Part shown: positions 12,301 through 35,373 of the stretch, piece by piece
Layout of the letters: the number at the start of each line of letters is the position of its first letter
Numbering within the stretch: position 1 is the stretch's first letter
Source: a virus
Length of the DNA: 64,000 nucleotides
Virus record (IMG/VR): IMGVR_UViG_3300043823_000671
Coordinates: 1-64,000 of that record
Reading direction: 5' to 3' (one strand)
Program-made: the position numbers and the translations under genes
Notes under the pieces: generated by a model
The model's input: the letters and a program-made list of their open reading frames with translations, nothing else
Told to the model about the DNA's origin: nothing
Database searches by the model: none

Positions 12301-14356
12301 TACCATTTCTGGCAACGGAACGACCGCCCTGGTTACCACGTCTTCGCCTCACGGTTTGCAAAACGGTGCGTACCTTGTTATCCGGGGTAACTCGACCGTT
12401 GGTTTCAACGACACTTTTGGTTTGAGTGTTGGCGGTAACCGCTGGATTCAGATTCTCGTCGTATCGCCAACTCAGTTCACCTTTGCTTCATCGGTTACTG
12501 GGGTTGGAATTGGCGGTTACGCATATTCAATCAATGTATTCGACCCATCCATTACCCTTAATTCCGTTCCTAATTCACCAGTTGCTAATACCGCATCTGC
12601 TTATCAGGGTTGGATGCCAAACGCAATCGTTGGTGTAGCACCAGAGAACTTTGTTGTCGCTAACCAAGCAACCCTCTCAAACAGCAACGTAAGCAACTCT
12701 GCTTATTCGGGCGTTTTTTACGTTCCTAACGGTACGAATATTGCGCTAAACGCCGGGACGGAAGTGACTTCACCATCAAACGGTCTTACTTATGTAGTCT
12801 CTGAATACACGCCAGCGGAAAGCACTGCTATTGCAGTTACCTTCGCACCCGAGAGCACAACGTCGAAAACTTTCAATGCGTTCCTCACCATGAACAGTCC
12901 GGTTTTGTCCCAAGTCTCTTCCGGCTTGTTCTATGTTGGTCAGGCTATTACCGGCGCAGGCATCCCAGCGAATACTTATGTGACTTCCGTGAACACCGGA
13001 TACTCAATTACTCTTAGCAATCCGGTTGAGGCTGATGGTGTATTCACCTTAACGTCATATGGGAATGCCTTGAGTGGCGCAACTGACCTCACCATCTCAG
13101 CCTCGTATGCGGTTCCAGCCTTCAGTTGGTCTAACGCAGTGGCGACAGATACGTATGCCCTTGGCTCGGTTATCTTCAAGGCTCTTACGCCACCCACGCC
13201 AACTGGGTATAGCGCAATCAACACCCTTATCCCGGCACTCCCGATTACTTTGGATAACAGCAACCTTAGCGTCGCTCACAATGCCCTACCGCTCCCCGCT
13301 ACAACCCCGACTAATGGGTTTGATTCTTTTTACCTTTTTGACCCCGCTGGGGACAACGGGACCCGAGAGTTGCAGGTCGGCTCAGACGCACCAACGCTTT
13401 GGTCTAGTTTTTCTGTTGCCGGTAACGCAGGTGACCAAATTATCAACGTTGTTTCGACGGCGGGTCTTGCGCCATCTTCCGAGTTGCTTGTCGACTGGGG
13501 CGGGACAAGCGAAGAAACTGTTGTTGTTTCACCGACATGGGATGGGACAAATGCGGTCGCAATTAGCACCCCGTTGCAGTATTCGCATTCTCAAGGCGCA
13601 CAGGTTTACTCAGTTGTTGCAGGTATTGCCGGACAGTTGCAGTACGCCCAGCAAGCGGGAACCCCGGTTGCGGTATTCACTTGGAATAATGCAGGTTGGG
13701 TCGGCAGTGGCGCTGTGGCAAATGACTATTACTTTTCCGTTAGCCGAAGCGAAGACGAAGGGAAAACCTGGTCTGTTCTTCCAAACCAAGGCTACGTAAC
13801 CCTGGATGAAACGGGCAAGGCGTACATAACGGACTATTTCGCCATACCCGGTGCCCCCACTTTTTACCAAGCAACGGGATACTACAAAGACGTTCGAGCG
13901 AACGTCACAATCCCCGGCGTGCCGACACAGCCCCTGTATGCGCCAATGGCTCAAACAAACTCTTGGTGGCTTTCGAGTTTCAGCAGACCAGACCTATACC
14001 ACTTCCCGATTCTCGTTCAAAACGGGCTACAGGAAGAGCAGAAGCACCCCGTCGGGGTTTTCTATCCGCTCGGTTCTTCACGCCCATACACAATCGCTGG
14101 TGTCGTACAGGGTCGTGACGCAACAATTGACATTGTTTGGAAAGACACCGTCAATTGGAGTTCATTCTTGTCAATGCTCAACCGTGGCGAAATAATGGTT
14201 CTTATTGACCCCGTTGAGCAAGAGCGTCGCTACGTTTTCGTCAGCGACAACGTTACTGCGACCCACAATTCTGGCTCCGCAGGACCTTGGCGTGACGTTA
14301 AACTCACCTACGTGGAAACTGCGCCCCCGAATTTTGGCTTTACGTACGGTTCGTAA
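6392..14356 (+). CDS. Giant minor tail protein (2654 aa) with Gly-rich domain and C-terminal distal-tail-like region
   Basis: GTG overlaps the upstream TAG; same GIPxxT repeats; Gly-rich block near aa 370-540; C-terminus (VGVFYPLGSSRPYTIAG...YVETAPP) resembles actinophage minor tail proteins found before DUF5047 genes. Confidence 0.75.
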   Translation: MGFQYEHSYATPVATADSGGPNSASVVVVNPLSTNSVTTSQTLTLSSPWVPAGNNGAPNISTSLYEPVVAGSSTLAISDASSFPMSGYPNVHQQGLGLLLPEIGRSAGDTPVGSTSINIVLTGQLPNVFPFNVSINGATFSVTSTSSTGGATFTTLNISSSTTIDIPDLSPVHFASLSIGTSYNILDTPMFYITSPISAGVPTPYISTSPLPCNIPFGTTIAITYGDYIETCLVGDDAMAGDTQLALATFAFQGVGTGVNSVVMTSGTINVSTFAEELGNTGIASAGTDTSSQAMSMAGMGMSVGTASGNSTSGIETGTVLFGGLASVALVGTASTTLSNSSLSFSTGGSASSSSSSASSSATTIQGIFTVVGGGGGSAGATGAGGGGGQVIDNSNITIPIGTPISLTIGSGGAILLDGGATSFMGNSANGGKAGVSGTGGNSGGGLLGGTMQFVDSGSGGGAGAGGAGGAGTGHATGATSRGGNGGAGFTSSLTGTTYAGGGAGWAPDVSGSAGSGQNNAGGGGNYGSGGNAGLIVLSIPATSPTPVFTGISPTQSSSNGRNIYTWSTAGTGTVTFGTTSSSSSSSSSASQLTGSASAGTTTVTFTNLVNAGYGAGSVSGIFQVQAGQAVVGEGVPPNTFVVGPVVQNGSSGSFNLNQPVSFTSTQANPTVYLATVVNSTTLQGSGSQTAFVLTDSTVGLTPKTVFFGAYIPAYDYEPSSGANGVFSSANAQGIVLLNQDLSIGQTLALYDGSSFVGTLTKGLNTITGVSSSAGIDIGQMLSGLGIPFGTTVTAVTAVTGGYTVTMSGVATSTQTQIGIMSQGATQTLKVALGQSKMTPHIHVEPFSPVYPFDNSSVLLAPFAFTLDTGDNIEVVYPITTPMPMNALGKAPYSISLATQTQNSHASGALLRFYQMPSPPNTADVVYRPDFSTSSGNYVYAPMGVDAHELSIYDGQMYREARISSIQGIYNIKGSPNGNDKTNISFIDSVTKETLPADQIPNANSVNGTTYAGGIRSLDPSRSPWTPQSFEDIQMVVEATVPPNGSITYNSLSVQVAYQTAPRPTSVWLSPSDTLIISPETSSSIEWTYSDLDGKPQGAFVVKIFDQFTYLSLDFSPETSTPIWSTQSNDTNLNKTSVLIADANGNTPPFISGQQYWAFVKVAKTFNQQPWFGEWMGAPFSVVVLQPQPALMSYNADGSSAVNGLIVQSSDNLLKDDNAEFSNSIGGWSPTQNDTSNTQLIDGTSGTVLGANISTKQTITSLPIGSIGYLVSPLPVSASSGSQFSVSGSMGTKTLAEGFPAVGSSFWVTIDSENILVNHISAGTSKTANVFQVLQRGYRNSTVTSHTANTSVVIGLQDDIYAGTEGSLYFLEVQTGTTSVYKPSASSKKLPTTSTAVVASSTPTTAGATLKVTKPTSSSNPNQFTVYDPNNALPVGTKGATFTLYGTNTTQQTQTKKVGGTTLSLSQNVTSSVTDVIEITGVVATAPTTLATYFPASFTARNIEGPGYCSSLPVQPGTGSPNVIASVIKAGNSLSVQTPDFKRSFSITLTKDWDRSKDSSIYFKPVFLYGTEFGLTIYVPNNETAKTVAQTTNSYLVPKGCLININVTTSTPTPYKIVSINNGWNNKGGFKNFQIKGSITLNGGGSGGSSGSGGTVTQVPYVHKYPHTMTFTVASNPSPATPSVSFGSAVFSAITFTATSTANSAILTSASGFGGLVIGSAITSANFPTGTVVVAIGTNTVTLNNPATTSATGATFTSNSFITMSGITSPQAVTANEYAGYLVYAYGVTPGTTIASNTACSATGTFAITLSQGSVIQDSTALTQISFAPVVGNTNIANVIPAGSTSIPVIPFTPDFDYPKYSAMTLKFPITTSAQQAMFGANIMKVQPTTNGYVEISTKGGSAPDSFVTDPDAVPVTPGVTYGLMGWSHVINGLSTPKFQPYILWYDAYQNPIYWDYGMNSLSASPVEISTISGNGTTALVTTSSPHGLQNGAYLVIRGNSTVGFNDTFGLSVGGNRWIQILVVSPTQFTFASSVTGVGIGGYAYSINVFDPSITLNSVPNSPVANTASAYQGWMPNAIVGVAPENFVVANQATLSNSNVSNSAYSGVFYVPNGTNIALNAGTEVTSPSNGLTYVVSEYTPAESTAIAVTFAPESTTSKTFNAFLTMNSPVLSQVSSGLFYVGQAITGAGIPANTYVTSVNTGYSITLSNPVEADGVFTLTSYGNALSGATDLTISASYAVPAFSWSNAVATDTYALGSVIFKALTPPTPTGYSAINTLIPALPITLDNSNLSVAHNALPLPATTPTNGFDSFYLFDPAGDNGTRELQVGSDAPTLWSSFSVAGNAGDQIINVVSTAGLAPSSELLVDWGGTSEETVVVSPTWDGTNAVAISTPLQYSHSQGAQVYSVVAGIAGQLQYAQQAGTPVAVFTWNNAGWVGSGAVANDYYFSVSRSEDEGKTWSVLPNQGYVTLDETGKAYITDYFAIPGAPTFYQATGYYKDVRANVTIPGVPTQPLYAPMAQTNSWWLSSFSRPDLYHFPILVQNGLQEEQKHPVGVFYPLGSSRPYTIAGVVQGRDATIDIVWKDTVNWSSFLSMLNRGEIMVLIDPVEQERRYVFVSDNVTATHNSGSAGPWRDVKLTYVETAPPNFGFTYGS

Positions 14357-22081: not shown

Positions 22082-22591
22082 ATGAGCGAAAACCCCTTCT
22101 CCCCCGAAAATCTCATCCCTACCTGGACGCAGGCTAATGAAATCCTCAAGGGCGACACGCCCGGACACCCGTTCCGAGGCAACCAGTACTCGTTCAATCA
22201 TGGTGCATCAACCCTCGCCAACCAAGCAAAAAAAGTTGGAGCCGTCACCTATCAAAGTGGTCACACAGGAACCGCCACTGAGCACGGCAACATCGCTTCG
22301 GGTCACCGTGAGGTAGCGAAGGCTATCGAGGACGGTATGCGTTATGGCAAAATCCCTGTCTCAAGGTGGGATGTTGCAAGGAAGGCTGTTGAAGCGCACC
22401 AGTTTGCGTCAAACCAACACCTCAATGCGTCAGGTGCCCATGCGAAAGTTGCACAACTTGAACTCAAGCCAGCAACGGGTAGCAAAATCTCCCAAAACCG
22501 TATGACCACTGCAGAAAACGATGCTTCTACTGCCTCACAAAACGCATCAGCCGCCAGCGACCTTGCTGAACGTCTTACACAAGAAATCTAA
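22082..22591 (+). CDS. Hypothetical protein with KGDxPGHxFxGNQ tag; Ala/His-rich helical body
   Basis: Tag encoded at 22148-22189; TAGCAT -10 box 6 nt before ATG. Confidence 0.75.
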   Translation: MSENPFSPENLIPTWTQANEILKGDTPGHPFRGNQYSFNHGASTLANQAKKVGAVTYQSGHTGTATEHGNIASGHREVAKAIEDGMRYGKIPVSRWDVARKAVEAHQFASNQHLNASGAHAKVAQLELKPATGSKISQNRMTTAENDASTASQNASAASDLAERLTQEI

Positions 22592-22602
22592 GAGGAACAA
22601 AG

Positions 22603-23553
22603 ATGACAAACCCCTTCTCCACAGAAAACTTGGTTCCAAACTGGACAGTCGCCACTGAAATCTTAAAGGGCGACGTGCCGGGTCACGACTTCCATGGCAA
22701 CCAGTGGACTGGTGGAAACGCTGGCGAACACTTTGACGGCTATAGCCCGATGGACACCAAGCAGACCCTCGGACAGATTGGGAAGATGACCGTCCTCTCC
22801 ATTTCAGGCGGACGTGTCAATGCTTTGCGTAACTCACATGGCGATACGGTTGGTGTAAACCTGCCTGTCAGCCACGGCTACGGCGTAAACGTTCTTCTCC
22901 ACCCGAACGACACATACACGGTTCAGCGCACCTTCACCCGTTCGGGAATAACCACGGTCAAGGGGCAAGAGGACGGCATCCACGCCGGAGAGATTAGCGA
23001 CACCGCTTACCGTGCTGGAATGTATCAAAACGTTGAGTTTGGCGGACACGTCAAAAAGGCGGAGCAAAGCGTTGCCAAGGGCGATGTAGCCGGACACCCA
23101 TTCCACGGGAACCAGTACACAATCTCATCGCAGGTTTCTGGAAATAACGTTGAGGGGAGCGACAGCAAAAACTACGTAGAGGGTCGCAACGGTGTATTCC
23201 GTAGCAACCTGAACTCCCAATACCACAAAATCCAACGAGGCGACACCCTCGATGCAATCAAGCAACACTTCTCGGGTCTGCGACTTCGCAACCGCCAAAC
23301 GGTCGAACTGACCAAAGGTTCTCCCGACGAGAGCAAGGTTGTCTGCAAGTATTGCGGTAGAAATAAGACCGAGCCTTCGCCCGACAACAGCAAGCCTGAC
23401 ACGGGGCGAGCGACCGTGACGTGGGACCCCAAGACAAAAGACTTCGTCCGCAATGCCGATGGAAGCGTTCAAGGACAGCACTACACGGAAAGTTGGGGCA
23501 ACACCCTCAACCAAATCAACAATCTTGGTATGCAAATGCGGGGACGCATCTAG
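22603..23553 (+). CDS. Two-module protein, each module preceded by a KGDxxGHxFHGNQ tag
   Basis: GAGG RBS; tags at 22666-22707 and 23077-23118. Confidence 0.8.
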   Translation: MTNPFSTENLVPNWTVATEILKGDVPGHDFHGNQWTGGNAGEHFDGYSPMDTKQTLGQIGKMTVLSISGGRVNALRNSHGDTVGVNLPVSHGYGVNVLLHPNDTYTVQRTFTRSGITTVKGQEDGIHAGEISDTAYRAGMYQNVEFGGHVKKAEQSVAKGDVAGHPFHGNQYTISSQVSGNNVEGSDSKNYVEGRNGVFRSNLNSQYHKIQRGDTLDAIKQHFSGLRLRNRQTVELTKGSPDESKVVCKYCGRNKTEPSPDNSKPDTGRATVTWDPKTKDFVRNADGSVQGQHYTESWGNTLNQINNLGMQMRGRI

Positions 23554-24101
23554 TGCGCCATCCCGTTGAGCCCTGCCAACTAATAACTCATCAGCACATC
23601 AAGCCAGGAGACACGGGATTCGCACGAACCAACGGTTTGCTGGGTCTGCTCATTCGAGTTGGTGAAAAGTTAAAGTGGCGAAACGGAAAATATAACCACG
23701 CATTTACCGTTGTCTCAGCCGGTGTCGACAGCAACGAAATTTGGATAGTTCAAGCAACTCTCCGAGGCGTAGTTCTGTCCCGCCTACAAGACCTAATGAA
23801 CACTTCAACAGTTATCGAAATCTTGCCCGCACCAAGCGGTGCTGACCGCAACAAGATTATTGAGTTTGCACACCTACAAGTTGGCGACGCCTATGGCGTT
23901 TTGTCGGACATCTGCATTGGCGTAGACATCCTTTCACCAGAGTGGTTTTGGTCTGTACGACGTAACGGAACGTGGATTTGTAGTGCGCTTGCGGGCGAGG
24001 CACTGCGCTACGGCGGTCACTATATCAACATCCCGGACGTTTATTCAAATACGCCAACACAGTTGTACGAGCAGTTGCTTGAAAGGGTGACGCAACCGTA
24101 G
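23553..24101 (+). CDS. Permuted papain-like (YiiX/YebB, NlpC/P60) enzyme
   Basis: GTG overlapping upstream TAG; IKPGD, YNHA, VGDAY, WICSAL (His precedes Cys). Confidence 0.7.
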   Translation: MRHPVEPCQLITHQHIKPGDTGFARTNGLLGLLIRVGEKLKWRNGKYNHAFTVVSAGVDSNEIWIVQATLRGVVLSRLQDLMNTSTVIEILPAPSGADRNKIIEFAHLQVGDAYGVLSDICIGVDILSPEWFWSVRRNGTWICSALAGEALRYGGHYINIPDVYSNTPTQLYEQLLERVTQP

Positions 24102-24132
24102 TACACTTCACTCCAAACGAGAGTGAGGCTCA

Positions 24133-24450
24133 GTGTCAATTTTCAAAAACAACGATTACGGGAAAAACGGAAAAGAAAAGTTCGATTTTCACGCAAAAGA
24201 AATGCACCCCTCGAACTGGCGTCGTAGCGAGCAAGAAAAAACGGAGCCGGTTGGTTTCGTCATTTATATCCCACATGAATGCGTCCTTCCATCTCGCTAT
24301 GACCACGAAAACGGGACAATTTTTCAGTGCCTAGGCACGAAGGTTGTGGATGAGCAGGGTAATACAAGAACCTGCGGAGACCGCCATGAATTGCAAAATG
24401 GCTCCTGGGTCCGAATCTACCGAGCGGGCTATGACGGACCTACCGCATAA
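24133..24450 (+). CDS. Hypothetical protein
   Basis: GAGG RBS; dense gene packing. Confidence 0.55.
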   Translation: MSIFKNNDYGKNGKEKFDFHAKEMHPSNWRRSEQEKTEPVGFVIYIPHECVLPSRYDHENGTIFQCLGTKVVDEQGNTRTCGDRHELQNGSWVRIYRAGYDGPTA

Positions 24451-24452
24451 CT

Positions 24453-24644
24453 ATGGCTAAAAAATCCGAGCCAAAGCCAAAAACGGAAAACGGTCATACT
24501 GTCCAGGTTGAGGAATACCACTCAACGATGCTCAATATGAAACTGTATCAACCGTACTGTAGTTGTGGCTGGGAAACAGCACGCTGGGCACGTCAAGAGA
24601 ATGCAGTGGCTCTAGCCAAAAAGCACTTAGCGGAAAGCAAGTAA
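24453..24644 (+). CDS. Small Zn-binding-like protein (CSCGW)
   Basis: H...CSCGW...H pattern common in actinophage small proteins. Confidence 0.55.
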   Translation: MAKKSEPKPKTENGHTVQVEEYHSTMLNMKLYQPYCSCGWETARWARQENAVALAKKHLAESK

Positions 24645-24681
24645 CCCCCCTACACAAAACACCAGGGGTAGGCTTGTATCC

Positions 24682-25173
24682 ATGACTATCGTGGTGGGCT
24701 GGCTGGACGGCAAAAACGCATGGATTGGTGGAGACTCCGGCGCATTCGGGGAGAGCACCGTCACCATCACCGCCGAAACAAAAGTTTGGAAAGCAGAAAA
24801 CTCCCTAATCGGTTTAGCCGGGTCTTTCCGCCAAGCAGAAATCGCCAAAGAAAGCGGGATAGGCGACCCATACGCACTACGTGACCACCTTCTAACAACT
24901 TGGGAAAACAGAAATAACGTACCCGAAGACTGGGGCGCAGAATTTCTAATCGTTACGCAAAACGAAATCTTTTACATCACCGATGACTTCGCTGTGGTTA
25001 GGAGCAAAGAAAAGTACGGCGCAGTGGGGATGGGTGATGGAACGGCGCTTGGTGCCCTTTATGCAATGCAGGGTGTAACAATGCAACCCAAAGACAGAAT
25101 AAGCACGGCGCTAAAAGCATCCGCAATGCACGGGAACTACGCAAGACCGCCTTTCAAAATCATTTCTCTATGA
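24682..25173 (+). CDS. HslV/proteasome-beta-like Ntn peptidase
   Basis: Thr at position 2 (MTIVVG), GGDS, KVW, AVG.G...ALGAL. Confidence 0.75.
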   Translation: MTIVVGWLDGKNAWIGGDSGAFGESTVTITAETKVWKAENSLIGLAGSFRQAEIAKESGIGDPYALRDHLLTTWENRNNVPEDWGAEFLIVTQNEIFYITDDFAVVRSKEKYGAVGMGDGTALGALYAMQGVTMQPKDRISTALKASAMHGNYARPPFKIISL

Positions 25174-25559
25174 AGCGCACGTATACGTTGACATACGAGC
25201 AACGTCCAGATTTCACTCTCAACAAAGAGCGCACTGTTCACCACATGAAAAGAGCGAAAGTTGTGAAAGAATGGAGAGGGGCTTTTTGCGAATTGGCGCA
25301 CGACTCTATGCTCCCAAGACTGGAAGCAATTGAAGTTATCGCACAGCCCTACGTCCAATCAGCAAAATACAGGCAAGACGTTGGTGCTTGTTTTCCGCTG
25401 GTCAAAGCATCCATTGACGGTCTTGTCGATGCCGGTGTACTCATCGACGATAACTCTAAAGTGGTCGTCAAATTAACGTTTCTGGCGCCCAAATATGGAC
25501 GTGATGCACTAGAACTAAAGATTATAGACACGGGTAAAACAAAGGAAAATGGGCGCTAA
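25170..25559 (+). CDS. rusA: RusA-like Holliday junction resolvase
   Basis: QDV...KASIDGLVDAGVLIDD motif. Confidence 0.75.
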   Translation: MKRTYTLTYEQRPDFTLNKERTVHHMKRAKVVKEWRGAFCELAHDSMLPRLEAIEVIAQPYVQSAKYRQDVGACFPLVKASIDGLVDAGVLIDDNSKVVVKLTFLAPKYGRDALELKIIDTGKTKENGR

Positions 25560-25654
25560 AATAAGGTTTCTCAACCCTCGGCAATAAACCCATGACCTAA
25601 ACTGGACACAAACCAGATACCGCACTACACTAAACCCCCAGAAAGGAACGACTA

Positions 25655-25921
25655 ATGCCTTCTTCTCAAGAACCAATTTCACCCCTTCCCGAGCGCAAGT
25701 CAGCAGACGCCGACACGCCCGAGATTGCCTCGCTACTGCAACACATCAAGGATGTGTCGCACCAAATGCGTGAGAGCGAGAAGAAGGTTGTCGAACTCGG
25801 CAAGGAGCGCCGTCAAACGGTCACCAGGCTTCGTGAAAAGGGCGTTACGTGGCGCAAGATTGCTGAGTGGGCTGGTACTACCGACCAGGCACTCTACAAG
25901 CACCACAACCGAGACAAATAA
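25655..25921 (+). CDS. Small HTH DNA-binding protein
   Basis: AAGGA RBS; GVTWRKIAEWAGTTDQAL HTH; promoter TGGACA-N17-TACACT (25603-25631). Confidence 0.7.
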   Translation: MPSSQEPISPLPERKSADADTPEIASLLQHIKDVSHQMRESEKKVVELGKERRQTVTRLREKGVTWRKIAEWAGTTDQALYKHHNRDK

Positions 25922-25968
25922 CTCAATCATGTTACTAAACCCTGCTACACTATTTGCAGGGAGAATAC

Positions 25969-28431
25969 ATGACACAAGTGGCGAACGAAGCGAAAGTAGA
26001 CGAACTCCTAGTTAGGGCAGTCAAAGCGGTTGCCAGTAACTGCGATGGGGCGACCGAACGAGACAGCATCGGATTCAACGGACCCGACTCAGCCTTCGGA
26101 AAGGCGCTCGCCGCCACACCTCCAGAAGTTTGGACAGCAGAAGTCCAGCGACGTGCATGGGAAATGATGCACAAATACCGCAACCAACTTTCGGATGCGG
26201 GAATTGACTACGACAAAATTGCAGAGCCGGTGGACAACGGACGTCGAGGCGAAATACGTTGCGTTGATGTCCGAGGCGGAAAACTATTTGTCTTTTTACC
26301 ATACGGCGATTCCGTCTACCCCCGCTCCGGCATTGGCGCAACGTGGAACCGTGAATATCGTGGGCACCTTATACCTGTAGCGAATTACGGGAAGGTCCTT
26401 GATTGGGCTATGCGAAATGGTCTGCCTGTATCCGACCAGGCGAAGTCGATTCTTCAACAAGCCGAGCCAACAAAAGTTAGTGCCGGTTCCGTAACGGTAA
26501 GAAACGGTTCCCTTGTTATCACAAGCGAATACAACCCCGCTTTGGTTGATGCAATTCGTGGGGTGCCATCACGCAAATGGGATGCAGAAAACAAAGTCTG
26601 GGTTTTCCCGCCAAGCATGATTACGTTGGTTCGCAAGATAGCCACAGAGTTCAACCTGCAATTGGGCGGTGACACAAACTCTTTTGAAGACGTTGAGGTT
26701 TCTTCGGGAGTAAGCATTTCGGTGCGGAACAGAATGTTTGCTTTGTCGTTCAACTACGACGCCCAACTTGTCTCTCAGGTTCGACAGATGCCGGGGGCAA
26801 AATGGTCAGCAAGCGACCGGGTCTGGCTAATACCCCTCGAAGCGTCCGAAGAAGTTTTTGTATTTTCACGTCAGTCTGAAGCGGTCATCTCCAACGAAGC
26901 AAGGGCTTTGTTTGGCGAAGCAGAAGAACTGCAAAAGATTATCGAGTCGAGCCAAGCCAGCGATGCTGAAATTGTTATCCCCGGTTTTGGAAACGACAAA
27001 TTCCAACTTTATCCATTCCAACGAGCAGGCGTTGCTTACGGCTTGCGAGCGATGGGGTATTCATACGACGGCGACCAATGGGTGCAAAACGTCGAGTCAA
27101 CTGGCGGAGTAATTATTGGCGATGAGATGGGTCTTGGTAAAACGAGTCAGGGTTTAGCACTACTAAAGGCGACCAACTCGTTCCCTGCCGTAATCGTATG
27201 CCCCGCAAGTTTGAAGTTGAACTGGAAGCGTGAAGCAGAACAGTGGATTGACGGGATTAAAGTCAAGGTGATATCCGGCACCAGTGGCGTTATGCCCGAC
27301 GCAGATATCTATGTAGTCAACTACGACATCCTTTCGTACTGGGTAGAAAAGTTCCCAACCATCCGAGGCATAGTTTTTGATGAAAGCCACTACATCAAAA
27401 ACCCACAGGCGCAACGGACAAAGGCATCAATTCGTCTGAGCGACAAAGTTGTCGATGGCGGAGTACGGGCTTGCCTGTCGGGTACACCGGTGGTCAATAG
27501 CCCGCTGGAACTACAACCGCAGTTGCGAGTAGTGAACCGCATAGAAGAATTCGGTGGTCGTAGTTTCCGCTCAACATACGGTCAGCCAAGTGCACGAAGC
27601 CTGGCATCACTCAACCGCAAGTTGCGCTCTTCTTGCTACGTGCGCCGTCGTAAGGCAGACGTTCTAACCGAGTTGCCACCGAAGCGCTGGAGTGAAGTAA
27701 TAGTAGAGGGCGACGCTGGCGTCATGAAGGAGTATCGCAAAGCGGAGAAAGACATTGTCGCTTACCTGACCGAACTTGCGCTAAAAACAGCACAAGAAGA
27801 AGGGGCAACAACCGAAGAAGCGAAGCACGAAGCATGGGTCAAGGCTCTCCGTGCTCGTAGCGCAGAACACCTTGTTGCGCTGTCAACGCTGAAGCAGTTG
27901 GCAGTAAAAGCAAAAATGAAAGTCGCCAAAGAATGGATTGAAGACTTTTTGACCAACGATAAAAAGTTGGTTGTGTTTGGCTGGCACCGTGATGTAGTCG
28001 ATGAAGTGGCGACAAACTTTAGCAACGGAATAAAAATCCAAGGTGGACTTAGCGCAGAAAAGCGCCAAGAAGCAGTAGACCTTTTTCAAAACTCCGATGA
28101 CCAAAAAGTTATTGCGTGCAATATAAAAGCGGCGGGCGTTGGTCTAACCCTAACTGCGTCAAGCGACGTACTCTTTCTTGAGCAAGGATGGACCCCAGGA
28201 GACATGGAGCAGGCGGTTGACCGGTGCCACCGTATTGGGCAACAAGACAGCGTTACGGGATGGTTGATGCTTGCACAAGACACCATTGATGAGGACATCG
28301 CCTCGCTTATCGACTCAAAAAGAAAAGTCGTAGACAAAGTGACAGATGGTCTCAGCGAAGACGAGCAGGAAGAGTCGATGGCTACGGAGTTGTTGATGGC
28401 GCTTGCACGGCGACACGGGGCGGAGGTTTAG
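25969..28431 (+). CDS. SNF2-family helicase (SMARCAL1/HARP-like)
   Basis: GGGAG RBS; Q motif LYPFQ, GDEMGLGKT, DESH, LSGTP, QAVDRCHRIGQ; repeated W-containing N-terminal modules. Confidence 0.9.
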   Translation: MTQVANEAKVDELLVRAVKAVASNCDGATERDSIGFNGPDSAFGKALAATPPEVWTAEVQRRAWEMMHKYRNQLSDAGIDYDKIAEPVDNGRRGEIRCVDVRGGKLFVFLPYGDSVYPRSGIGATWNREYRGHLIPVANYGKVLDWAMRNGLPVSDQAKSILQQAEPTKVSAGSVTVRNGSLVITSEYNPALVDAIRGVPSRKWDAENKVWVFPPSMITLVRKIATEFNLQLGGDTNSFEDVEVSSGVSISVRNRMFALSFNYDAQLVSQVRQMPGAKWSASDRVWLIPLEASEEVFVFSRQSEAVISNEARALFGEAEELQKIIESSQASDAEIVIPGFGNDKFQLYPFQRAGVAYGLRAMGYSYDGDQWVQNVESTGGVIIGDEMGLGKTSQGLALLKATNSFPAVIVCPASLKLNWKREAEQWIDGIKVKVISGTSGVMPDADIYVVNYDILSYWVEKFPTIRGIVFDESHYIKNPQAQRTKASIRLSDKVVDGGVRACLSGTPVVNSPLELQPQLRVVNRIEEFGGRSFRSTYGQPSARSLASLNRKLRSSCYVRRRKADVLTELPPKRWSEVIVEGDAGVMKEYRKAEKDIVAYLTELALKTAQEEGATTEEAKHEAWVKALRARSAEHLVALSTLKQLAVKAKMKVAKEWIEDFLTNDKKLVVFGWHRDVVDEVATNFSNGIKIQGGLSAEKRQEAVDLFQNSDDQKVIACNIKAAGVGLTLTASSDVLFLEQGWTPGDMEQAVDRCHRIGQQDSVTGWLMLAQDTIDEDIASLIDSKRKVVDKVTDGLSEDEQEESMATELLMALARRHGAEV

Positions 28432-28436
28432 GAAAC

Positions 28437-28470
28437 AGAAAACCCCGCCATTTTGGTGACGGGGTTTTCT
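28437..28470 (+). terminator. Intrinsic terminator
   Basis: AAAACCCCG..CGGGGTTTT stem directly after the helicase stop. Confidence 0.7.
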
Positions 28471-28545
28471 CTGCTGGACATTGTGCAGGTTGGGCGTTTG
28501 CCCAACACCAGAGTATCGGTTTAGATACCGCTTTTGTTTAATCCT

Positions 28546-28620
28546 TCTGGGGTCGTCTAATAGGCAAGACGGCGGGTTTTGGTCCCGCTAATCAGGGTTC
28601 GAGTCCTTGCCCCAGAGCCA
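28546..28620 (+). tRNA. tRNA-Gln(TTG)
   Basis: Acceptor TCTGGGG/CCCCAGA, anticodon stem GCGGG/CCCGC with loop TTTTGGT, T-loop TTCGAGT, encoded CCA. Confidence 0.92.
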
Positions 28621-28950
28621 AAACCAAGATTCAACTCAACCGTGGTATGGTTGACGGAGTAAAAGGAGAAATAATGATTGAACGTTTTTTCGACACCGTT
28701 CTCTATGCGCTGTGGTTCCTGTTCGGCTACTCAGTCGCTGTGAAGGCAAAAAAGGACAAGGGTGCCAACTAAGCAAAACAACCTATGGGCGGTAGAAACG
28801 CCTCAAGGACAGATGTTATTTCGCTTTGAAAAAAGCGCACTAATCGCAGAGGAATGCGTAAAAGAAATGAAGGGAGAAACATGGCAATTGTCATTGGAGT
28901 CATAGTCGTTTTGGCTAGTGTGTATCTATTATCTGGCGGAGAGGAAACAA

Positions 28951-29139
28951 ATGCCTGACAACAACGATTTCACGGAAATCGAAATAGAATTCTCTGAAGA
29001 AGAGGCAGAGGCTATTCGAAAAGCCTCATCCCTCAAGGGCGTAACGTTCGAAAAGTACGTTGAAGATGCGCTCGCCTCTTTCATCACCAGATGGAAAGAG
29101 AATGCCAATGGACAACCAGACTCCGAGACCGAGGGATAA
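28951..29139 (+). CDS. Small ribbon-helix-helix-like protein
   Basis: GAGG RBS; IEIEFSEEE..AIRKA...GVTF..YV. Confidence 0.45.
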   Translation: MPDNNDFTEIEIEFSEEEAEAIRKASSLKGVTFEKYVEDALASFITRWKENANGQPDSETEG

Positions 29140-29533
29140 AAGCCCCTGGGCTACCTCTACTCCGGGGTTGTCGCCAGAAGAAGTAACGAAGAGGATTAAT
29201 CAGAAAATGGTTGATTCGTTTGGGGACGACTACCCAACCATCTGGGCGGGAGCAGTGGCAATAGCCAGACCCAAAGGCGCTTCGATATTTGACTGGATAG
29301 AAAAGTTGGAATCAGCAAGGGCGTTGCCAACGTACCTTGAGCGCAGAACCGCACTCTACGAACTTATAGTCGAGTACGCAGAAAAACTGGAAAATCAAGA
29401 AGCACGTGAAAACGTTGCTAAAAAATTGGAAAGAGTCAATTTGAATCGTGAGATAAACGAGGATAAGTTTGACTACGAGTACAGAAGTACAAACGAAAAA
29501 AGGGAAGAGCAATACAAATGGTGGAACAACTAG
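29102..29533 (+). CDS. Hypothetical protein
   Basis: ORF in a tightly packed operon; start uncertain. Confidence 0.5.
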   Translation: MPMDNQTPRPRDKSPWATSTPGLSPEEVTKRINQKMVDSFGDDYPTIWAGAVAIARPKGASIFDWIEKLESARALPTYLERRTALYELIVEYAEKLENQEARENVAKKLERVNLNREINEDKFDYEYRSTNEKREEQYKWWNN

Positions 29534-29769
29534 GTGACTACTGGTGGGAAAATGCCTCATGCAAGGGCATGGATACCGAAATCTTTTTCCCCGAACGAGG
29601 GCGCTCGCACTTGTCGGAGCGAGTCATCTTTGAGGTGTGCGGTAACTGCCCCGTGCAGGAGAAGTGTCTTGAGTATGCAATTGAAAACGACTGCACCGTC
29701 GGATACTACGGTGGCGTCAGTGCTAGGAACCGTCGAGTTGCTCGTCAACGAAATGTTTGGGTCGCATAA
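29518..29769 (+). CDS. whiB: WhiB-family transcription factor
   Basis: W...ASC, FFP, C..CPV...C, GYYGG. Confidence 0.85.
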   Translation: MVEQLGDYWWENASCKGMDTEIFFPERGRSHLSERVIFEVCGNCPVQEKCLEYAIENDCTVGYYGGVSARNRRVARQRNVWVA

Positions 29770-29932
29770 TGGCTAAGTGGCGCATTAGGCACGATGCGAG
29801 GATTGCACGGGCTTATGAATCGCACATTATTGAAGCCCACAACATCAACCACGCAGAATCACTAATGCGAGCGACGGAAGACCTCGACTGGGACAGCGGG
29901 CGCTTCGATTGGACTATTGAAATGGTGGCTGA

Positions 29933-30322
29933 GTGAGCGAAACGGTTGGACGCTGGACCATAGACGCAAGCGGGAAACTCGTAGCGGTGCGGGGGGCAAG
30001 GAACAGCACCGGCTCTCCAGGCGAGCACGGCACTGCGAATATGTACTTCACCAAAAAGTGCAGATGTAAACCCTGTCGCAAGGCGGCAACTGAGTACAGC
30101 AAGATGGTTCGCTATCAGCGCTATGCGACACCATACGAAAAAATCCCACACGGCACAAAAAACGGGTACTGCAACTACGGGTGTAGGTGCAAGCCATGCC
30201 TCAAAGCAGTGCAGGCGTACAAGAAAAAGTACACACAATCACCAGAGTCAAAGAAGCGCCAGAACGAAAAGCGAAACGAGAGACGTCGCTTGCAACGGGA
30301 AGCGCTAAGGGGCGCCAACTAG
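29933..30322 (+). CDS. Protein with two HGT..Y...CRC..C Zn-binding-like repeats
   Basis: EHGTANMY..KCRCKPC and PHGTKNGY.NYGCRCKPC. Confidence 0.65.
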   Translation: MSETVGRWTIDASGKLVAVRGARNSTGSPGEHGTANMYFTKKCRCKPCRKAATEYSKMVRYQRYATPYEKIPHGTKNGYCNYGCRCKPCLKAVQAYKKKYTQSPESKKRQNEKRNERRRLQREALRGAN

Positions 30323-30344
30323 AACCCCGTTGTAGCATTGATGC

Positions 30345-31556
30345 ATGGGAATCAACGTTTCAGCGGAAGTAATAGCAATTGACAGCATCAAGCCCCACCC
30401 GCTCAACCCACGGCTGGGCGACATTGTCGCTATTGCGGACTCGCTAAAAACCCACGGTCAGTACTCACCGGTCGTCATTTGGAATGACACCATCATCGCT
30501 GGAACGCACACCTGGAAAGCGGCAAAATCCCTTGGGTGGAAGGAAATAGCGGTAACACGCTACAAGGGCGATGAAGACAGCGCCATGAGGGTCCTGGTAG
30601 CCGATAACAGGACGAGTGACATAGCGGTCTACAACAATGAAATACTTCTACAGTTGCTAAAAGCAGTCCCAGAATTGGATGGGACGGGCTGGGAAACAGC
30701 GGAGATAGAAGCGCTAAATATCTCTCACGAACTCGATTCCGGCGGGGTGGCAGGTGCTGGCGGTGGCGGAGCGGGTAAAAAAGACGGCGCCGAAACAGTC
30801 AAAATACGTATCGGTGAGTTTCAGGGCGACCTCGACCCAGAAATTTACGGCATTTGGATACAAAGCCTTATCGATGCGGTTGGCGAAAAAAAGGCGAAGA
30901 TAAATAAAGAACTGAGGGACCGTCTAGATGTCCCCAAGGAACCGAGGGCGCCCAAAAAAGACACCAAAGAGCCTCCAAAGCCCCGTTTGAGCCAGCAAAA
31001 TTTCAGCATGGGCGAGACGACCCTCGAACCCATATCGAGCCTAAAAAGGTATCCAGCGAACCCCAGAGAAGGCGATATAGGTGCAATCAGCGAGTCGCTC
31101 AGGACCCTGGGGCAATACCGACCCGTTGTCGTCAACCGCTCCACGAGGGAAATCCTGAAAGGCAACCACACCGTAGCGGGCGCTTCGTCGCTTGGCTGGA
31201 CGGAAATAGCGGTCGTCTGGGTCGACGTAGACACCGTCGAGGCTACCAAAATTGTTCTCGTAGACAACAAAACCTCAGACAAAGCGACCTACGACAAAGA
31301 CCTGCTCACTGGAGTTTTGGAAGATATCAGCACCCTGGAAGGTACGGGCTTCGATGCCGACGACTTCCACCAAGAAATTCGTGGGAACGATACGACACCA
31401 AAGCAATCCAAAGTCAAGTTTAGGATTGGTGAGTACGGATTTACAAGCACGCAAAACGTTTACGAAACGTGGCGGGAAGAAGTTGACCTACCAAACGATG
31501 CTCTACATCGACTGGGGTTGCCGTTGACCGCCCTTGTAAACAAGACCGAGGAATAA
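30345..31556 (+). CDS. Protein with two ParB/Srx N-terminal domains
   Basis: Two copies of P.NPR.GD..AI..SL...GQY.P.V ... G.HT ... DN[RK]TSD. Confidence 0.85.
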   Translation: MGINVSAEVIAIDSIKPHPLNPRLGDIVAIADSLKTHGQYSPVVIWNDTIIAGTHTWKAAKSLGWKEIAVTRYKGDEDSAMRVLVADNRTSDIAVYNNEILLQLLKAVPELDGTGWETAEIEALNISHELDSGGVAGAGGGGAGKKDGAETVKIRIGEFQGDLDPEIYGIWIQSLIDAVGEKKAKINKELRDRLDVPKEPRAPKKDTKEPPKPRLSQQNFSMGETTLEPISSLKRYPANPREGDIGAISESLRTLGQYRPVVVNRSTREILKGNHTVAGASSLGWTEIAVVWVDVDTVEATKIVLVDNKTSDKATYDKDLLTGVLEDISTLEGTGFDADDFHQEIRGNDTTPKQSKVKFRIGEYGFTSTQNVYETWREEVDLPNDALHRLGLPLTALVNKTEE

Positions 31557-31558
31557 AC

Positions 31559-31951
31559 GTGGACGAACTAAACGAAATTGCGGACTGGTTGGACCAAGCA
31601 GATAACGAAAATGTTATTTCCAAGTCCGGCGAGACATATGTTCCACCACAAGGAGTCCAAGACTCAGCAAAGCAAGCCCTCGAATGGATGGCTGATGGCA
31701 AGGCTGGAGTTGGGTTTACGTCCGTCGGGCGAAAGCGTGCAAGCGACCTAGCCAACGGTCACCACGTCTCAGAGAAAACGCTACGACGCATGAAGGCATA
31801 CTTCGACCGTCACCAACCCGACAAAAAGTCTCCGCACTGGGACGAGCCGAGCCCGGGGAAAGTTGCGTGGTACGCATGGGGCGGTGACCCTGGCTACTCA
31901 TGGGCTAAAAAAATGGTCGACCAATTCAACCGAGCCGACGAGAAGAAGTAG
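31559..31951 (+). CDS. Stand-alone phage head-associated domain (AWxxWGG motif)
   Basis: PP.GV...A, T.VG..RA..LA, RM.AYF.RH, AWYAWGG; I recall this pattern fused to portal/MuF-type head proteins (unverified). Confidence 0.6.
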   Translation: MDELNEIADWLDQADNENVISKSGETYVPPQGVQDSAKQALEWMADGKAGVGFTSVGRKRASDLANGHHVSEKTLRRMKAYFDRHQPDKKSPHWDEPSPGKVAWYAWGGDPGYSWAKKMVDQFNRADEKK

Positions 31952-31968
31952 TCAGAAAGTCTATTCAA

Positions 31969-33579
31969 ATGCCAGAGGAACTTACTCTCATTCAAAAACT
32001 CGCCATCATCATGAAGGGCGACGTTCCGGGTCATGAGTTTCATGGCAATCAATACACGGGTGGCGAAGGGGCAACGGGGGAAGGTCTACTAACCGGAGCA
32101 CAAGTTAAGTCCGCAATTTTCTCCCCCAAAGGCATTGAAGCATTTAATCAAGTGATGATGAAACAGGGTTACCTCGCCTATCCAAATAACCACCCCATGT
32201 TTGGCGGTTGCGGAGTGGTCGCTAAAGCGTTGCTCAACATTTACCCCAACGGGAAAATGGTTGCTATTGGCGACCGAATAACGCCAGAAGAAGGGCAAAA
32301 CTACCCGCCTATTTTCGTTCAGCACTATGCAGTGCAAATTGGACCAGATAAGTTTGTTGATGCCGAAGGCGAAAGAAGTTTCGAACAAATAAAGAAAGAC
32401 TCAGACCCATTTTCATTTACCTCTAGGTGGGAAGTTGAGCCCGCCACGCCAAGCCTTATATCAAGGTTCCAAAGCATCGCTACTTGCACCGACCAAGAAG
32501 CCAAAGACTACGCCAACGCATTACTGGAGGCGAGTGGCAGTGACCAAGTAGTCAAGGGCGACAAGCCCGGGCACGACTTCCACGGCAATCAGTATGAAGA
32601 AGTCGCAAGCGAAGGAACCCAAAAAGTAGACAACGTTTTTGGGTACAAATTGCCAACTGGGTGGAGTCGCCTCGTGGACCAAAATGGTAAAGACGTTGAC
32701 CCGTCCGTCGTCACCCTCGTTTCCGACAAGGGGAACAAAGCAATTTTCCCAGAGTACCCAGACGACAACCCGTCACGGATGTCTGACCCGTCAGCCAATT
32801 TCTGGCAACCGGCGCTACCCGAAGCAAAATCAGCAATGGCGACAATCGACCAGTACGCATCCGGCGTCACTTTGAATTTCTTGAACCAAGCCGGTAAAAA
32901 CGCAATGGGCGCATTTAACCCCAAGCACCCAGACACCATCGAAATTGGCAATTACAGGAAATGGAATCCAGAAACACGCCTAAGCAACGGTAAGACCGCA
33001 GAAACCCCCCACAACAGCATCAATCCACCTTATGGCGAACTAGGTGGCTGGAGCGTAAGCAGTATGTTCAAGGGTGGTGACGGTATACGGGCAACCGTAC
33101 TGCACGAATTGGGTCATTTGACTTTTTTTGGCACCGGACACGAAGTGAACAAAATCTACGACGTGCTGGAGCAGACCAAAAAAGATATCGGTGACACCGG
33201 GCGAGCGGTCAATTGGGAAAACGCACACGTTGCGTCAATCCGCAGGGCGCTCGTGGCATCATCAAAAAACTACTCGGGCATAATTCTTGAAGGCAAAGAC
33301 TACAAGTTTTCATACGACGAGCGAGGTAAGCCAAACGTCGACGAACTTACCCAACGAATTATTGATGATGGCGTGGATGCGACATTCCCCCTTACGGAAG
33401 CGCAAGCAAGCACCCTATCCAGGTATGGGACCACAAGATATGGTGCGACAAACTTGGGCGAAATGTTCGCAGAAACATACGCAATGTATAGAACACCTCA
33501 GTTTGAGATGACGCCACTAATGTCGAACATGGCAAAAGCATTCAACTGGGGCGAACGACCCAACCAAGGACAGCAATAA
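31969..33579 (+). CDS. Tagged two-module protein: papain/transglutaminase-like domain plus HExxH zinc metallopeptidase
   Basis: Tags at 32014-32055 and 32554-32595; GGCGVVAKAL/QHYAV/FVDAEG; VLHELGH...YG..N..EMFAE. Confidence 0.75.
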   Translation: MPEELTLIQKLAIIMKGDVPGHEFHGNQYTGGEGATGEGLLTGAQVKSAIFSPKGIEAFNQVMMKQGYLAYPNNHPMFGGCGVVAKALLNIYPNGKMVAIGDRITPEEGQNYPPIFVQHYAVQIGPDKFVDAEGERSFEQIKKDSDPFSFTSRWEVEPATPSLISRFQSIATCTDQEAKDYANALLEASGSDQVVKGDKPGHDFHGNQYEEVASEGTQKVDNVFGYKLPTGWSRLVDQNGKDVDPSVVTLVSDKGNKAIFPEYPDDNPSRMSDPSANFWQPALPEAKSAMATIDQYASGVTLNFLNQAGKNAMGAFNPKHPDTIEIGNYRKWNPETRLSNGKTAETPHNSINPPYGELGGWSVSSMFKGGDGIRATVLHELGHLTFFGTGHEVNKIYDVLEQTKKDIGDTGRAVNWENAHVASIRRALVASSKNYSGIILEGKDYKFSYDERGKPNVDELTQRIIDDGVDATFPLTEAQASTLSRYGTTRYGATNLGEMFAETYAMYRTPQFEMTPLMSNMAKAFNWGERPNQGQQ

Positions 33580-34206: not shown

Positions 34207-35373
34207 GTGCCCGAAGAAGAGCAGTTATCGCTAACGCTAACCGAACAGCCGTCGCACGACGTATGGTTACCGCTCGAACGCTCAACGACGCCACTCGTCT
34301 CAGTACTTGAACTAGACGAAATAACGCAACAAGCAGTCGCTAAATTCGACTACTCATCAGTTTCCACCGAGTTCTACCCGTGGAAAATACCCGAAGACTT
34401 ACCAGAAGAGTATGGGATTGGTCTAATCGTTGGCGGGTCGGGAACTGGTAAAACCGTACTGTTGGAAGAGTTTGGCACACCGTCATCACCGGCGTGGGAC
34501 AACAACAAAACCATTGCGAGTCACTTCGACGACCACGAGATGGCACTTCAGCGGTTCTACGCAGTCGGGTTGTCGTCAGTCCCGGCGTGGACAAAGCCGT
34601 ACGGCGTACTTAGCAACGGCGAAAAATTTAGAGCGAATTTGGCTCGACTTCTAACCAGCGACACCGTTATAGATGAGTTCACCTCAGTAGTTGACCGGAC
34701 GGTCGCAAAAGCATCGTCAAAGACCATGCGAAAGTACGTAGAAGAGTGCGGAATCCAGCACCTCGTTCTCGCATCGTGTCACCACGACATAATCCCATGG
34801 CTCGAACCTGACTGGATAATTGACACCGATTCAGGTATGTACTGCATCAAGCCAAAGGAGTGTCTTCATCGGGAACCCATGGTGGCAGAAATATACGAAG
34901 TCAAAAGAGAAATGTGGGGAAATTTCATGGAACACCACTACCTCACTAAAGATATTCACAGGTCAGCAACCTGTTTCCTAGCAGTTGTAGAAGGAAGACC
35001 AGCGGGCTTCGCCAGTTCGTTGTATTTCCCAAGTGGGTCAATACAAAACGCCTACCGGGAGCACCGGACCGTAGTCAAGCCAGACTTCCAGGGTCTCGGG
35101 CTGGGACCGAGGATGGCTGACTGGCTAGGCGAGTACTACTTAAACCGTGGATTTAGGTTTTTTTCAAGGAGCAAGCACGGTCGGTTGGGCGAGTGGCGAG
35201 AAGCATCACCCCGATGGCGGGCTACGTCAACCAACAAAAAGGCACGACTCAGCAAAGACGCCAAACGAAATAATGATTTAGCGCACTGGGGTCACGCCAG
35301 GCAATGGGCGTATTCGCACGAGTATGTGGGCGACGTGGCAGAAGTTCTAGTCTCCGAAGGAGAAAAAATATGA
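34207..35373 (+). CDS. ABC-type ATPase fused to Mom-like GNAT acetyltransferase
   Basis: GGSGTGKT, LSNGE signature, IDEFTS, SCH; then HHYL and RTVVKPDFQGLGLG acetyl-CoA motif. Confidence 0.85.
   Translation: MPEEEQLSLTLTEQPSHDVWLPLERSTTPLVSVLELDEITQQAVAKFDYSSVSTEFYPWKIPEDLPEEYGIGLIVGGSGTGKTVLLEEFGTPSSPAWDNNKTIASHFDDHEMALQRFYAVGLSSVPAWTKPYGVLSNGEKFRANLARLLTSDTVIDEFTSVVDRTVAKASSKTMRKYVEECGIQHLVLASCHHDIIPWLEPDWIIDTDSGMYCIKPKECLHREPMVAEIYEVKREMWGNFMEHHYLTKDIHRSATCFLAVVEGRPAGFASSLYFPSGSIQNAYREHRTVVKPDFQGLGLGPRMADWLGEYYLNRGFRFFSRSKHGRLGEWREASPRWRATSTNKKARLSKDAKRNNDLAHWGHARQWAYSHEYVGDVAEVLVSEGEKI

Follow-up and report, generated by a model that had tools for sequence, protein, structure and literature searches.

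What does a 14-residue peptide do when it stands at the head of one protein module after another in a single virus? The question is raised by the window analyzed here, the first 64 kb of the 92.7-kb IMG/VR record IMGVR_UViG_3300043823_000671, an uncultured virus whose record is estimated to be 74% complete. A first-pass annotation had noticed five copies of the motif K-G-D-x-[PA]-G-H-x-F-[HR]-G-N-Q-[YW] (hereafter the tag) in three genes of this window, and had read it as a packaging or ejection signal on polyproteins that the prohead protease cuts after the Lys. Our analysis confirmed the observation and lent partial support to the interpretation: the tag is likely the header of modules that travel as cargo of the phage head.

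Five tag copies in three genes of the window

A six-frame scan of the 64-kb window with the motif recovered exactly five copies in three open reading frames (ORFs), and no sixth. They begin at 22148, 22666, 23077, 32014 and 32554, where the first-pass annotation had placed them, are all in frame, and each comes after a hydrophobic-x-K triplet (ILK, ILK, VAK, IMK and VVK, respectively). The three tagged genes, together with the tagless gene that precedes P0003, are laid out as follows (aa, amino acids).

22082–22591, + strand: P0001, 169 aa; class-A leader (aa 1–22, MSENPFSPENLIPTWTQANEIL), tag, one module of ~130 aa
22148–22189, + strand: tag of P0001 (K23–Y36), from the motif scan
22603–23553, + strand: P0002, 316 aa; class-A leader, tag 1, module 1, tag 2, module 2
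22666–22707 and 23077–23118, + strand: the two tags of P0002, from the motif scan
31559–31951, + strand: P0171, 130 aa; W-containing leader without a tag, and a phrog_2859-type module
31969–33579, + strand: P0003, 536 aa; leader (aa 1–15), tag 1, module 1, tag 2, module 2
32014–32055 and 32554–32595, + strand: the two tags of P0003, from the motif scan
aa ~40–190 of P0003: module 1, with a YunG/NlpC-P60-like lead from its nearest clusters
aa ~220–532 of P0003: module 2, with HELGH and a zincin-like lead from its nearest clusters

The two internal copies fall at domain boundaries, as the first-pass annotation had proposed. In the AlphaFold model of P0003, residues 1–37 and 197–218 have predicted local distance difference test (pLDDT) values below 50 and lie amid the folded modules (residues 40–190 and 220–532), while module 1 of P0002 has free-standing homologues elsewhere that end 6–11 residues ahead of the Lys. 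A further junction lies upstream of P0003. In relatives of P0171, a tag and then a P0003-like module follow at the very point where P0171 itself ends in ...ADEKK, and we therefore regard P0171 as the upstream half of a junction-split gene; P0003 starts 18 nucleotides after the end of P0171, with a leader and a tag of its own. As for the enzyme labels that had been given to the two modules of P0003, the HELGH sequence is indeed present, whereas the papain-like and peptidase identities stay leads from nearest-cluster similarity. P0001, P0002 and P0003 belong to no Pfam or PHROG family, a Foldseek search of the P0003 model against the PDB gave no match at E ≤ 0.001, and a hidden Markov model (HMM) of the P0003 family gave no meaningful match to PDB sequences.

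Synonymous codons vary among the copies (GGA/GGT/GGG, CAC/CAT, TTC/TTT, AAC/AAT and CAG/CAA), so the tag is conserved at the protein level, in agreement with the earlier claim. On the same ground, a recombination cassette at the DNA level was rejected as the cause of the conservation. Beyond the window, a degenerate DNA pattern encoding GHxF[HR]GNQ matched 12 times in the whole 92.7-kb virus, always on the + strand, and had no match in the reversed control. Scanning the whole virus with a tag HMM, as the first-pass annotation had suggested, revealed more copies than it had seen: 13 at 30–52 bits and a weak one at 14 bits, with noise below 7 bits, which amounts to 14 copies in 9 proteins. The weak copy belongs to a 210-aa protein encoded at 67943–68575 (sequence KGGAGSGPPVGHTFRGNRY).

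The repeated unit and its leader

To describe the unit, 295 distinct tag copies were gathered from viral contigs. The unit consists of hydrophobic-x-Lys, GDxPGHxFHGNQ[YW] and a Gly-rich linker, measures ~20 residues and is predicted to be disordered. Conservation reaches past the searched pattern on both flanks. Upstream, the residue two positions ahead of the Lys is V, I or L in 81% of all copies and hydrophobic (VILMF) in 99% of those with the canonical KGD form; downstream, GNQ is followed by [YW]-T-x-G-x-G-G, a flexible and Gly-rich segment. A variant, K-G-G-x-G-S-G-x3-G-H-x-F-x-G-N-Q, was also found, in the present phage as well as in others.

The tag is a module header and not a trailer. 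In the 211 complete ORFs in which its position was scored, the first tag lies 10–30 residues from the start in 128 and never closer than 10 residues, and C-terminal tags are essentially never seen. Where homologous modules are encoded as separate genes, the upstream gene stops between 11 residues before and 5 residues after the Lys, and the tag travels with the downstream gene.

Ahead of the first tag stand N-terminal leaders of 10–22 residues that fall into a few conserved classes, exemplified by MTNPFSTxxLxPxWxxxxEIL (P0001 and P0002), MSGFTTNELLYPLT, MSSGFHxDELLKSLSxYPV and MxxLDSEIxxWVxxA. A leader of class A–C is followed by the tag in 64 of 69 N-terminal cases, a leader-like element occurs upstream of an internal tag in just 7 of 151, and the few leaders that lack a tag still end in hydrophobic-x-K. 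Three elements can thus be told apart: a leader, present once per polypeptide, a hydrophobic-x-K junction, and a header tag, present once per module. The leaders had escaped the first-pass annotation. They make a stronger candidate address than the tag does, so that reading the tag as the packaging signal probably tells only part of the story. Some class-D leaders (L162, L167 and L169) end in KGD, after which a zinc-ribbon-like module (CPLCKGTG...CPKCGG) takes the place of the rest of the tag.

Diversity and distribution of the tagged modules

A 34-column tag profile was run against 1.84 billion proteins. At E ≤ 0.001 it matched 2,137 cluster representatives, 473 of them at 1e-10 or better, with up to 9 tags in one protein and protein lengths of up to 3,461 aa. 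The 599 modules found behind tags fall into 253 BLAST clusters, 183 of which are singletons. Variable domains downstream of the tag, which the first-pass annotation had expected in homologues, are therefore the rule, and the tag is not an integral part of a single known domain. Ten multi-tag proteins scanned directly for Pfam content contained ART-PolyVal, PARP-like, DRAT-like, GNAT, ParB_N, PI3/4-kinase and pentapeptide domains.

The strict DNA pattern was present in at least 118 IMG/VR stretches, with up to 22 tag copies in an individual viral record, and in two contigs from ~186,000 species genomes, both of them environmental metagenome-assembled genome contigs. The tag profile had no match among PDB sequences, the tag corresponds to no family in Pfam or PHROGs, and a full-text literature search for the motif strings returned chance matches or nothing, and no paper with the tag.

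The head module and its XkdF-type protease

Nine of the 14 copies lie in the head region of the phage, directly after the portal and XkdF-protease genes and flanking MuF. The window ends inside the first of these genes, and the region reads as follows.

62804–64444, + strand: Mu-type portal gene, cut by the end of the window (64000)
64602–66323: XkdF-type serine protease protein (PF14550), 573 aa, with the protease domain at its C-terminus
66332–67810, 67943–68575, 68945–70177, 71455–74049 and 74049–75875: tagged genes, from the tag HMM
76480–77922: MuF, untagged
77919–79637: tagged PI3/4-kinase or HipA-like protein, the module sitting behind the tag
83572–84048: scaffold
84072–85067: major capsid protein

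The 573-aa protein matches PF14550 over aa 433–554 with 40.1 bits, against a curated cut-off of 24, and three positions in the domain alignment, His37, His65 and Ser129, do not vary across 28 sequences. By this score and these conserved catalytic-type residues, it belongs to Peptidase_S78_2 (XkdF) and is a predicted prohead protease. Ahead of the XkdF domain, the precursor has a very long poly-Ser/Asp tract (~aa 120–260), a Cys-rich segment and a KKKRKKR patch, a layout shared by the protease precursors of relatives. This region could be a filler of acidic, scaffold-like character, and the stretch at ~aa 378–402 may represent a decayed tag.

The neighborhood recurs in other viruses. Of 29 long viral records with tags, 17 contained PF14550, among them all three that are at least 90% complete. 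It usually resides in an ORF of 560–690 aa; the tag arrays begin 0.2–1.5 kb downstream on the same strand, and a Mu-type portal lies 2–3 kb upstream of the protease. The association with one portal type and one protease family, which the first-pass annotation had proposed to look for, thus holds for the Mu-type portal and XkdF (PF14550).

Unrelated tags at the same junction

The reverse test used 80 viral loci with relatives of the present phage's XkdF protease domain. Where the protease is at least 70% identical and more than ~2.2 kb of downstream sequence is available, every locus is tagged, and only downstream. At 55–69% identity, none of 33 loci has a GHxFxGNQ-type tag. The latter phages are still close to the present one, with capsid proteins 57–64% identical, a portal ~54% identical and a homologous scaffold. 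Instead of the tag, some of their loci (L175, L178, L184, L193, L194, L199 and others) carry the junction peptide K-ASFGGDRSxAGRYAAxQRW. The protease relatives L200 and L201 carry K-ANPYRDxxTGRFTTGGGG, and L204 carries K-HGxHDQKTHAGGRGGGG; in other loci of the 55–69% range, no repeated peptide was seen.

At several KASFGGDRS loci, the peptide comes straight after the protease domain within one ORF and introduces a downstream module that is homologous to the first gene after the protease in the present phage. Judged from this gene arrangement, the linkage between protease and module is a fusion/fission event at the junction. The relative L163 has a GHxFxGNQ tag within its protease precursor. 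What the five tag forms share is the hydrophobic-x-Lys: the residue two positions before the Lys is hydrophobic in 99%, 100%, 91%, 100% and 100% of copies, compared with 0–35%, mostly 10–35%, at the three neighboring positions. These sequence patterns are consistent with cleavage by the head protease after the Lys, since hydrophobic-x-K is the sole element common to the five forms and since genes split and fuse exactly at the junction.

Two further ideas were discarded. A tagged portal in sister phages proved not to exist, the tagged ORF upstream of the protease being a separate gene. Moreover, the receptor of the tag could not be chosen from the divergence of head proteins, since portal, protease, capsid and scaffold have all diverged in step with one another and do not discriminate.

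A proposed mechanism and its alternatives

We propose that a clade of uncultured phages, whose portal is Mu-type and whose head protease is of the XkdF type, would use the header to build polyvalent or ejected effectors carried in the capsid. The leader would act as a capsid-targeting propeptide, as in the internal proteins of T4. Within the prohead, the XkdF-type serine protease would cut at hydrophobic-x-Lys (P3-P2-P1), which would remove the leader and separate the modules, and the lineage-specific header would stay on the new N-terminus of each released module. There it might serve as an extended recognition element for the protease, or it might engage a partner in the head interior or during ejection. 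Packaging, cleavage, the exact scissile bond and the role of the header after cleavage are what we infer from the patterns above, and we consider the full mechanism, with cleavage at the Lys, evenly poised between right and wrong.

Several points weigh against it. Cleavage alone cannot explain the tag, because 14 conserved residues far exceed what known prohead proteases need at their sites; a header of such length and conservation must have a reader, be it a protease exosite, a partner in the head interior or the ejection step. Single-module proteins such as P0001 would need no separator. The correspondence between tag type and protease identity may reflect shared descent only, given that portal, capsid and scaffold diverge in parallel, and when the tag-module-protease segment of L163 was modeled with AlphaFold, the protease core alone folded and the tag was disordered and undocked. 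According to the tag HMM, neither the portal, the protease, MuF, the scaffold nor the capsid protein has a tag. The tagged genes of the window stand ~30–40 kb away from the head module, surrounded by genes for replication and recombination, whose products include an AAA_24/Sak4-like ATPase, a replication initiator, a G39P-like loader, an HNH nuclease, an SNF2 helicase, ParB and a GNAT-ATPase. Cultured phages and plasmids gave no match in megablast, tblastn or short tag queries at E ≤ 10. Finally, the presence of tagged proteins in virions and their cutting are predictions from sequence.

These points have to be set against other explanations. The tag could be a pure address that is never cut, binding a receptor in the prohead interior (scaffold, inner face of the capsid, portal or protease protein) in the manner of encapsulin cargo-loading peptides or the HK97 protease tail, with additional copies adding avidity. 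The length, strong conservation and disorder of the tag, and the flexible Gly-rich linker behind it, are typical of docking peptides, and its lineage specificity and its retention on single-module proteins would fit as well. An uncut address leaves unexplained, however, the separate conserved N-terminal leaders, the hydrophobic-x-K common to otherwise unrelated tags and the linkage of protease to module through the tag in sister phages, and capsid protein and portal are 54–64% identical between phages whose tags are unrelated; we consider this reading unlikely. It is very unlikely, in our judgment, that the tag is the site of a zincin borne by the cargo, such as module 2 of P0003, that would free the effectors in the host cytoplasm after ejection, in line with the metallopeptidase (MPTase) model. 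This module has HELGH and zincin-like nearest clusters, and metallopeptidase processing of polyvalent proteins was proposed by Iyer et al. 2017 (PMC5512222), but the zincin assignment is a lead only, and it is next to the XkdF protease, rather than a zincin, that gene order is conserved.

The location of the window genes bears on a different alternative, in which there is no virion system at all: leader and tag would work inside the infected cell, e.g., as a docking or degradation mark for some phage or host factor, and the proximity to head genes would be incidental. Five copies do lie in the replication region of the window, and several relatives likewise have tag clusters distant from their head modules. 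Most copies nevertheless stand between the portal/protease genes and the MuF, scaffold and capsid genes, a MuF domain is found inside tagged polyproteins of other lineages (G013, G028 and G015), the domains match the repertoire of injected polyvalent proteins, and the window genes have the same leader classes as the head-module genes, which makes this explanation quite unlikely. Most improbable is a self-processing element (e.g., by Asn cyclization) or a metal-binding element formed by the His, Asn and Gln of GHxFHGNQ. The invariant G-H-x-F-x-G-N-Q, with one or two His and one Asp, might hint at such chemistry. Against this, the invariance is partly a product of the search patterns, related phages place chemically unrelated peptides at the same position, the region is predicted to be disordered, and no solved structure or family contains the tag.

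Returning to the mechanism of leader, Lys cleavage and retained header, a wider version of it is possible, though we hold it rather doubtful. The three parts, i.e., the leader as address, the hydrophobic-x-Lys cut and the lineage-specific header, would then form a portable code that loads, frees and delivers any module, in which the retained header is itself a functional signal (e.g., for ordered ejection via portal and tail, or for host recognition) and the versions of different lineages are mutually incompatible.

Other features of the virus

Near the tagged genes, the window encodes three untagged proteins: a C92/YiiX-like permuted papain amidase (weak match; 23421–24101), an HslV-like peptidase (PHROG match; 24682–25173) and an ATPase-GNAT fusion (34207–35373). 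These are possible host-takeover enzymes. Two abutting giant ORFs on the + strand (12–6392 and 6392–14356; 2,126 and 2,654 aa) take up 14 kb of the 93-kb phage, and have no Pfam or PHROG match and, by the tag HMM, no tag. After the head genes, the contig end (88565–92216) encodes a Nol-like carbamoyltransferase, a glycosyltransferase and a methyltransferase, which may form a DNA or surface modification module.

Comparison with known systems

In polyvalent proteins, unrelated effector domains are strung together near portal/MuF, and the products are thought to be packaged, delivered with the DNA and processed (PMC5512222). The processing enzyme of Iyer et al. 2017 is a fused metallopeptidase (PMC5512222). 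The likeness to the tagged proteins lies in the kinds of effector domain (ART-PolyVal, ParB, kinase, GNAT and zincin-like) and in the presence of several domains in one polypeptide, tagged relatives having up to 9 tag-headed modules. The domain repertoire, too, is found in the tagged relatives, and the present phage has its PI3/4-kinase or HipA-like module; its window genes offer just the zincin-like and NlpC/P60-like leads. With 1–2 modules per tagged protein, this phage represents the split, low-valency end of the polyvalent range. Its cluster at 66–80 kb adjoins portal and MuF, while the three window genes stand among replication genes instead. As to differences, the main text of PMC5512222 does not contain the string 'GNQ', and we found no repeated junction peptide or leader described there. 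Here, by contrast, every module has a header, many genes are small and hold one or two modules, and the neighbor is an XkdF-type serine protease.

The T4 protease gp21 has the cleavage consensus (L/I)-x-E. In the 10-residue capsid targeting sequence (CTS) of T4 internal proteins, targeting depends on the early residues and processing on residues 8 and 10; an LIE-9 site is present in gp21 itself (PMC9026906). This propeptide is common to unrelated head-internal proteins and lets phages load varied proteins (PMC9026906). The tagged proteins resemble this arrangement in having a short shared N-terminal leader that ends in a hydrophobic presumed P3, a free P2 and a fixed P1, an analogy of layout without sequence similarity. 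They differ in that the presumed P1 is Lys rather than Glu and the protease is XkdF/S78_2 rather than gp21, and T4 has neither a conserved 14-residue header after the cut nor internal repeats between modules. Because its junction is hydrophobic-x-K and its protease XkdF/PF14550, the present system would be, by analogy, CTS-like in its working but not a member of the CTS group.

In SPN3US, a single prohead protease processes numerous proteins of the head interior, cutting at a short motif that they share and in some proteins at more than one site. N-terminal propeptides of 20–254 residues are removed in phiKZ/SPN3US, some in SPN3US having just 20–24 residues (PMC10052503). Unlike here, no long conserved peptide follows the motif in these phages, and the proteins are not strings of tag-headed modules. 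MuF (SPP1 gp7) cargo fusions differ as well, since the MuF of the present phage (76480–77922) has neither tag nor cargo. In encapsulin cargo-loading peptides and in the C-terminal tail of the HK97 protease, a short peptide, disordered and joined through a flexible linker, guides cargo to the interior of an HK97-fold shell; such peptides are usually C-terminal and single-copy, and are not tied to cleavage junctions.

How capsids choose their proteins and how polyvalent proteins mature are known experimentally in few model phages (T4, P1 and phiKZ/SPN3US). The sequence rule described here (leader, hydrophobic-x-Lys, header and Gly linker) picks out unrelated modules by the hundred, in thousands of proteins from metagenomes. 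If the proposed mechanism is true, this rule would offer a way to list candidate injected effectors of uncultured phages, anti-defense enzymes included, a testable substrate motif for the uncharacterized XkdF protease family and a portable tag for putting foreign proteins into phage capsids. Additionally, the occurrence of unrelated headers at the same junction in related phages makes the co-evolution of signal and reader directly testable. The leader classes, the per-module headers and the shared hydrophobic-x-K junction are absent from the literature searched and from Pfam, PHROGs and PDB. Together, targeting and processing signals of phage head-internal proteins, and polyvalent proteins, are of a kind already known; what is new here is the junction rule that holds across tags, the distinction between leader and header, and the evidence of fusion and fission.

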